Shown here: in pieces, positions 25,447-28,143 of the stretch
Layout of the letters: the number at the start of each line of letters is the position of its first letter
How positions within the stretch are numbered: position 1 is the stretch's first letter
Origin: Pseudomonadota bacterium
GTDB taxonomy: Bacteria; Myxococcota_A; Polyangia; GCA-2747355
Direction of reading: 5' to 3'
DNA: 64,000 nucleotides
NCBI GenBank assembly: GCA_016702545.1
Contig: JADJDT010000029.1
Span: 10,500-74,499, forward strand
Made by a program: the position numbers and the translations under genes
The notes under the pieces: model-generated
What the model saw: the letters and a program-made list of their open reading frames with translations, nothing else
The model's database searches: none
Told to the model about the DNA's origin: nothing

Positions 25447-28143
25447 ATGCGTGCCACCGAGCTACCCACCGGACACGTCGTGGCCGGGAAATACCGCGTC
25501 AAGCGCTTGCTGGGCACGGGGGGCATGGGGGCGGTCTACGAGGCCGAGAACGTCTGGACCGAGCGCCGCGTGGCGCTGAAGGTGCTGCGGCCGGACATGG
25601 CCGACAACACGGAGGTGGTCGACCGCTTCGTGCAGGAGGGGCGCAGCGCGACGATGATCGCGCATCCGAACGTGGTCGAGGTGCTGGACATGGGTCGGGA
25701 CGCCGACGGCGCGATCTACATGGTCCAGGAGTACCTGGTGGGCAGTCGCCTCGACGCCCTACGGCTCAAGCGCGGGCGCTTCCCCGTGCGCGACGCCTTC
25801 GATCTGGTGCTGCCGGTGATGGGCGGGCTGGTGGCGGCGCATCAGCGCGGCATCGTCCACCGCGACGTCAAGCCCGAGAACATCATCATCACGCAGAGCG
25901 CGCGCGGGCGCCTGACTCCCAAGCTGATCGACTTCGGCGTGGCCAAGCTCGTCGGCCACCTGCGGGCTCATCAAACTCAGCCTGGCCTGGTGATGGGCAC
26001 GCCGCACTACATGTCGCCCGAGCAGATGAGCGGATCGGCCACGGTCGACCATCGCGTGGATGTGTGGGCGATCGGGGTCGTGCTCTATGAGCTGCTGGCC
26101 GGGCGCCGGCCGGTCGAGGCCGTGGCGCTGCCCGAGATCTGGGCGGCGATCGTCAACGGGACGCCGACCCCGCTGCTGGAGCTGGTGCCGGCGACCCCGC
26201 CGGCTCTGGCGGCGGCGGTGCATCGCGCGCTCGCTAAACGGCCGGCCGAGCGCTATCCGTCGATGGAGGCCTTCGTCGATGCCCTGCTGAGCTGCGCGGG
26301 CCTGGAGCAGGTGGCGGCCTGGGTGCTCGAGCGCCACCCCGATGCCTTGCCCTATCAGCGCCAGCACCCGCGCTTCGGGGTGCACTGGCACTGTGAGCTC
26401 TCGTGTCCGCAGTGGAAGACCGCGCTGCAGCTCGTGTCGGCGAACCTCAGCCAGGGAGGGGTCTTCCTCCCCAGCACCGCGCCGCCGGCGGTCGGCACGG
26501 CGGTCGAGATCGGGCTGCAGCTACCCGATGGCTCCCGCGTGCGGCTGCGCGGCACGGTGTTGCGCGCGGTGGGAGCCGACGCGGCGGTCAGCGGGGGCAC
26601 GGCGGGCTTCGCCGTGCGCTTCGACGACGAGCACGCGACCGAGTTGGCGGTGCTCGAGCAGGTGGCCTCCGCCCATCAGGAGCCGGGCTTCGAGGCGCTG
26701 CCCGATCGACCGCCGCCGGCCCCGGCCCCGCCGGCGGTCGGTGGGGTGGGGGGCCTTGCGATGGCGGGCGCGGCGCCCGTCGCTCCGCCGCCGGTGGCGC
26801 CCGCCGCGCGACCCGCGGTGGCGCCGCGCGCAGCTTCCGCGCCGCCACCCGTGCCGCGTGCGGCGGCAGCGCCCGCCGTGCCGGGCGACACGATGCCCGG
26901 GCCGACGAAGGCGGGTGCCGACGCGGTGTCCACGCAGCCGCGCGTGAGCCCGGCCGCGCGCGGGCGGCTCGCCGAGGCGGTTGGTATCGACTTCGGGACC
27001 ACCTACAGCAGCGTCTCGATCGCCCTCGACGACAAGGTCTACATCATTCCGGATGGCAAACAGCGCACGCTGCACCCGTCGCTGGTGGCCTACCCCGAGC
27101 GCGGGCAGCCGCTGGTCGGCTGGGATGCGCGTCAGCAGCAGGTGGCGCATCCCGAGCGCACGGTGATGTCGGTCAAGCGCCTGCTGGGTCGCAGCATCAA
27201 CGATCCGGCGCTGCAGGGCTTCCTGCGGGGTCTGCCCTTTCCCGCCTCGCCGGGGCCGAACGATGGCGTGGTGCTCCGCCTCGGCGAGGCCGAGCTGGCG
27301 CCGGTGCAGGTCGCGGCGGAGATCATGGAGTTTCTGCGCCGCACGGCCGAGGCACGGACCGGGCGCGCCCTGCGCCAGGCAGTGCTCTCCGTGCCCCTGA
27401 CCTTCAACGAGGCGCAGCGGCAGGCGATCACGCGGGCGGCGACGATGGCTGGCCTCGAGGTCTTGGAGCTGATCGGCGAGCCGATCGCCGCGGTGCTGGC
27501 CTACGGCTTCGGGCAGGGCAAGCAGGAGACGGTGGCGGTCTACGACTTCGGCGGGGGCACCTTCGACTTCTCGATCGCGATGCTGCACGGCAACCGTCAT
27601 CGCGTGCTGGCCAGTGGCGGCGATCCCTGGCTCGGTGGCGACGACTTCGATCTGGCGCTGGCGCAGGAGGCGGCCAATCGCTTCTGGCGCGAGAGCAAGG
27701 TCGACCTGCGGCAGCGCGCCGTCGAGTGGCAACGCCTGCTCTACGCCAGCGAGCACGCCAAGCGCATGCTCTCGACCCAGGAACAGACGGAGCTGGTGCT
27801 GCCCCGGGCGGTCGAGCATCCGCAACCGCGCGATCTACGCTGGGCGCTGTCCCGTCGCGAGCTGGAGCAGCTCTGCGCCGATGCGGTCGCGCAATCGCTC
27901 GAGGTCTGCCGGCGCACGATGGCGTCGATCAAGCTCGCGCCGGAGCGCATCGATCGCGTGGTGATTACGGGGGGTACCGCGCGCATCCCCTTCGTCCAGC
28001 GCGAGCTCGCGCGCTTCTTCGGCCGCCCGCTGGCGGTGGTCGTCGATCCTGAGCTCTCGGTTTGCATCGGCGCCGGCCTGCGCGCAGCGGTGCTCACGCG
28101 TCACCGCGTCAAAGAGGGCGCGCACCGGGCGCCCGCGACGTAG
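25447..28143 (+). CDS. Ser/Thr protein kinase - PilZ - Hsp70-like nucleotide-binding domain fusion protein
   Basis: One uninterrupted 898-aa ORF. The kinase has GTGGMGAVYEA, VALK, HRDVKPENI, DFG, GTPHYMSPE. PilZ has RQHPR (26359-26373) and NLSQGG (26443-26460). A Pro/Ala linker follows. The actin/Hsp70 fold has GIDFGTTYS, AITRAATMAGLEVLELIGEPIAAVLAY, VAVYDFGGGTFDFSI, GGDDFD and VVITGGTARIP. The protein ends about where an Hsp70 NBD ends. Confidence 0.9.
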   Translation: MRATELPTGHVVAGKYRVKRLLGTGGMGAVYEAENVWTERRVALKVLRPDMADNTEVVDRFVQEGRSATMIAHPNVVEVLDMGRDADGAIYMVQEYLVGSRLDALRLKRGRFPVRDAFDLVLPVMGGLVAAHQRGIVHRDVKPENIIITQSARGRLTPKLIDFGVAKLVGHLRAHQTQPGLVMGTPHYMSPEQMSGSATVDHRVDVWAIGVVLYELLAGRRPVEAVALPEIWAAIVNGTPTPLLELVPATPPALAAAVHRALAKRPAERYPSMEAFVDALLSCAGLEQVAAWVLERHPDALPYQRQHPRFGVHWHCELSCPQWKTALQLVSANLSQGGVFLPSTAPPAVGTAVEIGLQLPDGSRVRLRGTVLRAVGADAAVSGGTAGFAVRFDDEHATELAVLEQVASAHQEPGFEALPDRPPPAPAPPAVGGVGGLAMAGAAPVAPPPVAPAARPAVAPRAASAPPPVPRAAAAPAVPGDTMPGPTKAGADAVSTQPRVSPAARGRLAEAVGIDFGTTYSSVSIALDDKVYIIPDGKQRTLHPSLVAYPERGQPLVGWDARQQQVAHPERTVMSVKRLLGRSINDPALQGFLRGLPFPASPGPNDGVVLRLGEAELAPVQVAAEIMEFLRRTAEARTGRALRQAVLSVPLTFNEAQRQAITRAATMAGLEVLELIGEPIAAVLAYGFGQGKQETVAVYDFGGGTFDFSIAMLHGNRHRVLASGGDPWLGGDDFDLALAQEAANRFWRESKVDLRQRAVEWQRLLYASEHAKRMLSTQEQTELVLPRAVEHPQPRDLRWALSRRELEQLCADAVAQSLEVCRRTMASIKLAPERIDRVVITGGTARIPFVQRELARFFGRPLAVVVDPELSVCIGAGLRAAVLTRHRVKEGAHRAPAT

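Follow-up and report, generated by a model that had tools for sequence, protein, structure and literature searches.

The open reading frame (ORF) at positions 25447-28143 of the 64,000-nt stretch of contig JADJDT010000029.1 analysed here (referred to as the window) is a genuine gene under selection, and it encodes a rare signalling protein made of three parts. In this protein, a Hanks-type Ser/Thr kinase and a PilZ domain are joined, via a disordered linker, to an Hsp70-type nucleotide-binding domain (NBD) that lacks a substrate-binding domain (SBD). The product is a cytoplasmic multi-domain signalling protein of a Myxococcota (Polyangia-like) bacterium, and the assigned architecture, kinase-PilZ-linker-SBD-less NBD, is almost certainly correct. 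What is new is the placement of the NBD, which, as judged by phylogeny and site conservation, belongs to a large SBD-less clade and is not a truncated DnaK. The parts of the protein are:

25447..28143, + strand: complete 898-aa ORF, kinase-PilZ-linker-NBD, with an ATG start and the stop codon at 28141-28143
25492..26256, + strand: Hanks-type Ser/Thr protein kinase, aa 16-270 (Pfam PF00069, E 2e-44)
26257..26355, + strand: short conserved kinase-PilZ junction, aa 271-303 (8-member alignment)
26356..26658, + strand: PilZ domain, aa ~304-404 (PF07238 and motifs)
26668..26961, + strand: Pro/Ala-rich disordered linker, aa ~408-505 (predicted local distance difference test score, pLDDT, <50 in AlphaFold2, AF2; alignment gaps)
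26977..28113, + strand: Hsp70/DnaK-type NBD, aa 511-889 (PF00012, E 7e-98)
28102..28140, + strand: short polar C-terminal tail RHRVKEGAHRAPAT, replacing the DnaK linker DVLLLD (tail listing)

Long spurious ORFs are frequent at the ~72% GC of the window, but this one has the signature of a coding sequence. The ORF is one reading frame of 898 aa with zero internal stops, its GC content by codon position (0.77/0.50/0.90, i.e. 0.90 at third positions) is typical of real genes here, and it is colinear over its whole length with 7-10 homologs from independent assemblies. In the core alignment, which consists of the window protein and seven homologs (8 members, 42-81% identity), the catalytic and binding residues of the kinase, PilZ domain and NBD are all invariant in 8/8 members. 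The ratio of nonsynonymous to synonymous substitution rates (dN/dS), computed against the closest ortholog L001 (79% nucleotide identity), is 0.156 overall, and by part it is 0.14 for the kinase, 0.17 for PilZ, 0.10 for the NBD and 0.36 for the linker, where 23 codons are gapped. Given the low dN/dS of the domains and the invariance of their key residues, all three are under purifying selection.

The initial annotation of this DNA had described an uninterrupted ORF in which a Hanks-type kinase, a PilZ domain with both motifs intact, a Pro/Ala linker and an Hsp70 NBD without a peptide-binding domain follow one another, and had proposed profile searches as a check. Each of these elements is borne out by the data given here, including the motif coordinates, which are exact, and the profile searches, when run, recovered Pkinase, HSP70 and (with the segment scanned alone) PilZ above the Pfam cut-offs. 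Structure prediction, which had also been proposed, settled one of two points. The NBD is complete, as it aligns to E. coli DnaK residues 3-383 (PDB 1DKG) and, in the AF2 model, matches isolated Hsp70 NBD structures with Foldseek template-modelling (TM) scores of 0.7-0.77; AF2 gave no reliable domain docking. The full-length model comprises three folded modules, with aa 408-505 disordered (pLDDT 69, predicted TM score 0.60).

The PF00012 match (329 bits) covers positions 1-382 of the 599 in the HSP70 profile, and hence is to the NBD only. After the NBD, 14 polar residues are followed by the stop; with the ORF ending at aa 898, the protein has neither a VLLLD interdomain linker nor an SBD. The cut-offs of the NCBIfam equivalogs were not reached for DnaK (PRK00290, 313 vs 648 bits), HscA (TIGR01991, 319 vs 709) or YegD (PRK11678, 72.3 bits in two partial stretches vs a cut-off of 331). 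With the 1DKG alignment as a guide, sites were numbered as in E. coli DnaK. The ATPase residues D515 (DnaK D8), K577 (K70), E678 (E171), D700 (D194), T705 (T199) and D707 (D201) are kept, and these six are invariant in 8/8 aligned members. The equivalents of Y145, N147, D148, R167, N170 and T173, taken here from the mutational and structural literature to be the J-domain/allosteric coupling sites of DnaK, are T652, N654, E655, E674, G677 and I680, respectively. In DnaK, the hydrophobic interdomain linker passes the signal to the SBD. As all ATPase catalytic residues are kept and the residues for J-domain/SBD coupling are lost, the NBD is predicted to be an ATP switch that DnaJ cannot stimulate.

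Relatives of this NBD were gathered by a profile search (1.84 billion representatives) and by a search with the PilZ-linker-NBD part of the protein. The SBD-less clade thus delineated comprises more than 100 protein clusters, mostly of the PilZ-NBD type and from Myxococcota-type metagenome genomes. Its classes are listed below, the counts being those among the proteins retrieved, with Pfam confirmation on samples:

PilZ (intact motifs) + NBD: 54 clusters
Unassigned N-terminal extension + NBD: 23 clusters
NBD only: 15 clusters
Degenerate PilZ-like + NBD: 11 clusters
Kinase + PilZ (intact motifs) + NBD: 10 clusters, window excluded
J-domain (HPD) + NBD: 5 clusters
Kinase + degenerate PilZ + NBD: 3 clusters

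The loss of coupling seen in the window protein is a property of the whole clade. In 35/35 sampled SBD-less NBDs, D8, G10, K70, R71, P143, E171, D194, G196-198, T199 and D201 are kept, as is T11 in 34/35, while R167, N170, T173 and Y145 are retained in none (0/35) and the DVLLLD linker is likewise found in 0/35. All five canonical controls keep the catalytic set together with R167/N170/T173/Y145 and the DVLLLD linker. Among 121 SBD-less members surveyed, the R167-N170-T173 (R-N-T) triad occurs in 0/113 with a readable site, as compared with 13/15 Hsp70s that extend beyond the NBD. Many, not all, clade members share an H-x-V-x-G-[VI]-x-R tail, to which the tail of the window protein is related; its residues H886, V888 and A892 are invariant in 8/8 aligned members. 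Because the clade has lost the linker, the SBD and the residues through which canonical DnaK takes up signals from the J-domain and SBD, the ATPase of the window protein cannot be a substrate-clamping chaperone.

In a neighbour-joining tree (374 columns, 200 bootstrap replicates), the SBD-less clade is monophyletic with respect to canonical DnaKs in 200/200 replicates. The kinase-bearing proteins form one subclade within the PilZ-NBD proteins (179/200), in which the group with intact motifs is recovered in 133/200 replicates and its sister group with a degenerate PilZ in 200/200. The NBD of the window protein is 41-50% identical to those of PilZ-NBD, J-NBD and NBD-only members, vs 36-40% to canonical DnaKs, and the protein shows all the features by which the clade is recognised, namely grouping in the tree, an ORF end at most ~25 aa past the NBD, the kept catalytic set and the lost R-N-T triad. 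The pattern of retained and lost sites thus indicates that the clade NBD is an ATPase-competent module from which chaperone coupling has been removed, and not a recent truncation. As the kinase-bearing proteins nest inside the PilZ-NBD proteins, the kinase is a later addition; the ancestral unit was PilZ-NBD, with the kinase probably added once at the N-terminus. The simplest history would be a PilZ-NBD ancestor, one gain of an N-terminal kinase and, in the lineage of P0123, P0295 and P0299, a subsequent loss of both PilZ motifs.

The end of the ORF at the end of the DnaK NBD, together with a weak Pfam MreB_Mbl match (41 bits), could also point to a pseudogene or an assembly artefact derived from dnaK by decay, truncation or chimerism, or to an actin/MreB-like filament module. 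However, this end point is shared by more than 100 independent clusters, many of which have a related tail. Moreover, the NBD dN/dS is 0.10, homologs from independent assemblies are colinear with the ORF, and the HSP70 score of 329 bits is far above that of MreB over the same residues. The pseudogene and artefact explanations were therefore rejected, and this whole group of explanations can hardly apply.

The three-domain architecture with intact PilZ motifs is rare, with ~11 clusters, the window included, among billions of proteins. The kinase-bearing clusters have one or two members each, and the named relatives all come from metagenome-assembled genomes labelled 'Polyangia', 'Myxococcales', 'Deltaproteobacteria' or 'Proteobacteria'. 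A genome scan on generic DnaK patterns (AVYDFGGG, WLGG[DE]DFD) returned 80 loci, which are ordinary dnaK genes. Three loci considered as full-length matches were discarded: at L066 and L070, the dnaK and the kinase are in fact adjacent but separate genes, and L053 encodes an Hsp70-TPR-kinase fusion of reverse order. In the sister lineage (P0123, P0295, P0299 and also P0363), a kinase, a PilZ-like segment in which both c-di-GMP (cyclic di-GMP) motifs are gone and the NBD are combined, and P0123 and P0299 carry an extra N-terminal Cys-rich (zinc-ribbon-like) segment. J-domain fusions to the SBD-less NBD are represented by P0141, P0309, P0310, P0311 and P0357, and by P0306, which is without HPD; P0357 carries PilZ besides the J-domain and NBD.

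The PilZ domain of the window protein has both c-di-GMP-contacting motifs. RxxxR is represented by R305-QHP-R309 (26359-26373), and [DN]xSxxG, 24 residues further on, by NLSQGG, N333-G338 (26443-26460). Residues R305, R309, N333, S335, G337 and G338 are invariant in 8/8 aligned members, and a motif search found both motifs in 11/11 intact-type sequences, the window protein included. PilZ is absent from the listing of the whole-protein Pfam scan and passed only when the segment was scanned alone (aa 284-423, PF07238, 38.5 bits vs a cut-off of 22.5, E 1.5e-9); all full-length homologs have a precomputed PF07238 assignment. The PilZ-related NCBIfam model TIGR02266 scored 45.4 bits, below its cut-off of 68.7. 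As a homolog query, the isolated segment gave no matches and missed known family members too, which is a word-index limitation and not biology. The AF2 model of isolated PilZ is weak (pLDDT 53); its top 7 Foldseek PDB matches are all PilZ (probability 1.0, TM 0.52-0.67), and the c-di-GMP receptor MotI is matched lower in the list. When a family profile of the PilZ segment was compared with the PDB, a Xanthomonas PilZ protein was matched with E 1.4e-5 and MotI/YpfA with E 0.008.

Both motifs are also retained in 54 PilZ-NBD proteins that have no kinase, and they were lost together in the P0123/P0295/P0299 lineage. This distribution indicates function-specific selection on the c-di-GMP motifs, and c-di-GMP binding by the PilZ domain appears fairly probable. 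As most members of the SBD-less clade carry an N-terminal PilZ with intact motifs, c-di-GMP is a candidate regulator of the clade.

On the other hand, PilZ might serve as a protein-protein adaptor that does not bind c-di-GMP, in which case the protein would be a kinase equipped with a pair of docking modules. Among solved structures, those closest to it are of Xanthomonas PilZ proteins that do not bind c-di-GMP and whose partners are PilB and FimX, and the sister lineage functions with degenerate motifs. Furthermore, the PilZ domain of Pkn1 is predicted to be non-binding, and PlpA, with its motifs intact, is reported not to bind (PMC8316039). This explanation is considered improbable, since the 11 intact-type sequences (42-81% identity) and the 54 PilZ-NBD relatives all have RxxxR and NxSxxG, which are jointly invariant here and jointly lost in the sister lineage. 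Xanthomonas PilZ is without these two motifs. In addition, the true c-di-GMP binder MotI/YpfA was matched too, with an alignment that includes the motif region, and GGDEF genes lie near two homologs (P0004 and P0006).

The kinase matches PF00069 over aa 16-270 with 152.4 bits, above the curated threshold of 31.7. It contains a GxGxxG loop (GTGGMG), K45, E64, H138-R139-D140, K142, N145, D162-F163-G164, G184-T185 and P191-E192, and these residues are invariant in 8/8 aligned members. Thus, as judged by its motifs, the kinase is catalytically complete. It is connected to PilZ by the short junction, in which L286, R296, H297, P302 and Y303 are invariant in the eight aligned members and AF2 places helices at 273-281 and 287-296. 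The linker on the other side of PilZ varies in length and sequence among homologs, with large gaps in the 8-member alignment, and acts as a flexible tether. Given that the junction is short and conserved whereas the PilZ-NBD linker is long, variable and disordered, direct allosteric coupling of PilZ to the kinase is plausible, but not to the NBD. The functional proposal of the initial annotation, a c-di-GMP-gated kinase coupled to an ATP-driven conformational module, is thus plausible with this qualification and two others, namely that the NBD comes from an old SBD-less clade and that the kinase joined PilZ-NBD later.

The reading tentatively preferred here, with chances judged somewhat short of even, is that of a kinase that responds to c-di-GMP and is tethered to an Hsp70-type ATP switch, which is no chaperone and possibly acts on the canonical DnaK system. 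The c-di-GMP would be bound by the RxxxR loop of PilZ, ~25 residues past the C-lobe of the kinase across the conserved junction, and binding would alter the activity of the kinase via autophosphorylation or dimerisation. The flexibly tethered NBD would be an ATP/ADP-dependent docking switch that positions the kinase on a partner, or it would itself be the kinase substrate. The most likely partner would be the canonical DnaK/Hsp70 system, approached via an NBD-NBD contact according to the Hsp110-like co-chaperone model put forward independently for 'DnaK derivates' (PMC13580251). The level of c-di-GMP would thereby be coupled to Ser/Thr phosphorylation in or near the chaperone network. Of the separate steps, gating of the kinase by c-di-GMP is possible but doubtful, and a role of the NBD directed at DnaK is on the unlikely side.

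The DnaK system is named as the most plausible target because NBDs of the same type are fused to HPD J-domains despite the loss of R167, which J-domains require; a J-domain fused to such an NBD presumably addresses another Hsp70. A link to the Hsp70 system is further supported by the P0007 homolog, which adjoins an Hsp70 with the R-N-T triad and SBDbeta as well as another derivative. At this locus (L005), positions 8085-9701 (-) encode the 538-aa Hsp70, which has a truncated lid (HscC-like), and positions 5570-7999 (+) the 809-aa SBD-less derivative, which has a long acidic tandem-repeat N-terminus.

Several findings weigh against a c-di-GMP-responsive kinase tethered to an ATP switch. The nearest PDB relatives of the PilZ domain are the Xanthomonas PilZ proteins that do not bind c-di-GMP. 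The PilZ-NBD tether is disordered and 40-200 aa long, and offers no structural route from c-di-GMP to the ATPase. Neither AF2 model is of more than moderate quality (pLDDT 69 for the full-length protein and 53 for isolated PilZ), and their inter-domain geometry is unreliable. No operon or partner gene is conserved across the seven homolog loci, and no GGDEF, EAL, DnaJ or GrpE gene was found near the ORF in the window. Finally, the identity of the NBD partner is pure inference.

The direction of signalling could also be the reverse, with the kinase as the input that phosphorylates the NBD or the Ser/Thr-containing linker in cis, and the NBD as the output that integrates c-di-GMP and phosphorylation. 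PilZ-NBD is ancestral and far commoner, the kinase came late, and the sister lineage kept the kinase and NBD after losing the c-di-GMP motifs, so that the kinase-NBD pairing is maintained independently. T705, the equivalent of DnaK T199, is invariant, and the flexible tether would allow the NBD to reach the active site of the kinase. T199 is the known autophosphorylation site of DnaK. However, T199 is catalytic in all Hsp70s and its conservation is hence nonspecific, the linker is poorly conserved (dN/dS 0.36, indels), and Hanks kinases usually act on substrates in trans. Phosphorylation in cis is thus regarded as unlikely.

A more specific form of the tethered-kinase reading, in which the SBD-less NBD would deliver the c-di-GMP-gated kinase to DnaK through an Hsp110-like NBD-NBD heterodimer and the kinase would phosphorylate DnaK, co-chaperones or clients, is highly speculative. 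If true, c-di-GMP would directly reprogramme the chaperone network through Ser/Thr phosphorylation and, if it holds broadly, the >100 PilZ-NBD clusters would together make up a family of Hsp70 co-chaperones under c-di-GMP control. Should c-di-GMP binding and kinase gating be true, c-di-GMP, protein phosphorylation and an Hsp70-type ATPase would be integrated in one polypeptide.

The genetic context of the homologs varies. Of the neighbours in the window, the divergent VIT-TPR gene and a fatty-acid hydroxylase gene are shared by L001, the closest relative, alone. The P0004 homolog has a GGDEF-EAL gene two genes upstream, the P0006 homolog a GGDEF gene immediately upstream, and the P0002 homolog a stand-alone PilZ gene and a CZB gene nearby; the neighbours of the other homologs are unrelated. 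In the window, the divergent gene at 22039-25236 (-) encodes a 1065-aa protein with an N-terminal VIT and C-terminal TPR repeats, in which no vWA was detected. The 210-bp intergenic region between this gene and the kinase-PilZ-NBD gene includes one promoter-like site, as compared with 0.2 expected in shuffles:

25357..25384, + strand: weak sigma-70-like promoter match ATGACA-16-GATGAT, 63 nt upstream of the ATG (consensus match only)

In the same region, at 25267-25300, the 17-bp sequence TTCGGGTCGATCACGGC occurs twice in tandem as a perfect direct repeat. It was rejected as a conserved operator as it is not kept in the promoter of the ortholog, which has different, GGTTGCTCAGT-like short repeats.

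The gene resides in a block that is syntenic with L001 and is flanked by two window-specific insertions (13937-21326 and 28139-34702). This location bears on whether the protein might belong to the kinases of anti-phage defence (PD-T4-6, MADS or BREX-PglW type), for which there are strong PADLOC matches (PD-T4-6, mad6 and PglW) as well as NCBIfam matches (MAD6 and PglW). Nearly all of the PADLOC matches are confined to the generic kinase (aa ~9-290), with the PD-T4-6 model PDLC04061 extending to aa 493, and the NCBIfam scores are below the cut-offs (139 vs 460 for MAD6, 72 vs 990 for PglW). Moreover, the neighbouring genes yield zero defence matches, the gene is in the syntenic core block and not in the variable insertions, and the contexts of homologs are composed of housekeeping or signalling genes. 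As the matches are almost entirely to the generic kinase domain and a defence context is lacking, the defence-system assignment was rejected as very improbable.

The first insertion (13937-21326) contains a PIN-domain gene (14228-14671, -), a gene for a 405-aa protein of unknown function and a HAMP histidine kinase gene (19645-21186, -). The second (28139-34702) contains several unknown ORFs, an FHA gene, a sigma-54 AAA+ gene and a Ser/Thr kinase gene (33562-34572, -), and the GC content falls to 0.69 at 28-32 kb. The FHA ORF (31413-31793, +) overlaps the ORF for the sigma-54 interaction (AAA+) protein (31781-32710, +) by 13 nt, and in the latter no helix-turn-helix was detected; the pair may be two true genes, or else one FHA-type enhancer-binding protein whose gene is split or frameshifted. 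It shares the strand of the target kinase and is located 3.3 kb downstream of it. FHA domains read phospho-threonine.

Elsewhere in the window, positions 31-6180 (+) encode a 2049-aa protein made up mostly of HYDIN/ASH-type Ig-like repeats. In the adjacent ORF call (6211-9672, +), an MMPL transporter is followed by a C-terminal RlmJ-like rRNA methyltransferase, and this may be two merged genes. A radical-SAM gene (34662-36296, -) and a gene for a large RCC1-repeat (WD40_RLD) protein (35860-38964, +) are both syntenic with L001; their ORF calls overlap by ~440 nt, the true RCC1 start is probably further downstream, and the RCC1 repeats produce many internal DNA self-matches. Part of an F1Fo ATP synthase operon (epsilon, beta, gamma, alpha and b subunits) is found at 44445-50181 (-), and further ordinary content includes genes for a kinase-PEGA protein (50722-52938, -), an NtrC-type response regulator (54697-56097, -) and DciA (59311-59853, +).

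Literature searches found no paper on the three-way fusion or on SBD-less PilZ-Hsp70 proteins, in accordance with the initial annotation, where no characterised three-way fusion was known. Its statement that PilZ-kinase and PilZ-DnaK fusions exist in myxobacteria proved accurate, the examples being Pkn1 (PMC8316039) and CsdK1/CsdK2 (PMC10313047). The main value of the window protein is as an entry point into the unstudied clade of PilZ-linked, SBD-less Hsp70 proteins, as it links the second messenger c-di-GMP to unstudied truncated DnaK relatives in myxobacteria. Within the clade, the rare fusions to a kinase or to J-domains serve as Rosetta-stone clues that connect it with Ser/Thr signalling and with the canonical DnaK system.

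Reverse-order fusions (L053 from Sumerlaeota, P0151, P0156, P0166, P0170, P0173 and others) likewise unite an Hsp70 module with a Hanks kinase. Unlike in the window protein, the NBD in these is N-terminal and the kinase C-terminal, PilZ is absent, and the R167/N170/T173 triad and a DVVLLD-type linker are kept. They are hence an independent invention on canonical Hsp70. Such fusions occur in Sumerlaeota and other phyla; L053 (1676-5176), P0151 and P0156 keep the SBDbeta region, and L053 has TPR or a spacer between Hsp70 and the kinase.

A further parallel is provided by the 'DnaK derivates', including YegD, which are NBD-containing DnaK paralogues without part or all of the SBD (PMC13580251). 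They have extra N-terminal domains, are expanded in Myxococcota, and are expected to have kept the ATPase and lost activation by J-domains and substrate (PMC13580251). The window protein belongs to this recognised class, with which it shares the conserved NBD and the missing linker and SBD, and its coupling sites match the expected loss. It is not YegD-like, with a PRK11678 score of 72 vs 331. PilZ or kinase fusions are not described in the review on this group, which treats the added domains as being of unknown function and proposes Hsp110-like NBD-NBD co-chaperone roles (PMC13580251). Hsp110 (Sse1/HspA4) is itself Hsp70-derived, has a diverged linker, is not J-stimulated and acts as a co-chaperone via NBD-NBD contacts (PMC13580251). 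It serves as an analogy for the action of the NBD, but keeps a modified SBD and is of a lineage unrelated to the window protein.

Among characterised proteins of myxobacteria, Pkn1 (MXAN_1467) of Myxococcus xanthus is a Ser/Thr kinase with a PilZ domain that is predicted not to bind c-di-GMP (PMC8316039). At the level of architecture, the window protein is similar to it as a myxobacterial signalling protein with a Hanks kinase followed by PilZ, and differs in having the Hsp70 NBD, which is absent from Pkn1, and both PilZ motifs intact and invariant. CsdK1 (MXAN_3778) and CsdK2 (MXAN_6605) are PilZ-DnaK chaperones of M. xanthus, composed of an N-terminal PilZ, the NBD, a conserved linker and the SBD (PMC10313047). 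The window protein shares with them the fusion of PilZ to the N-terminus of a DnaK-type NBD and, with CsdK2, a full bipartite c-di-GMP motif. Unlike the CsdK type as described in that publication, it is without the linker, the SBD and the residues for J-domain contact, and adds a kinase at the N-terminus.

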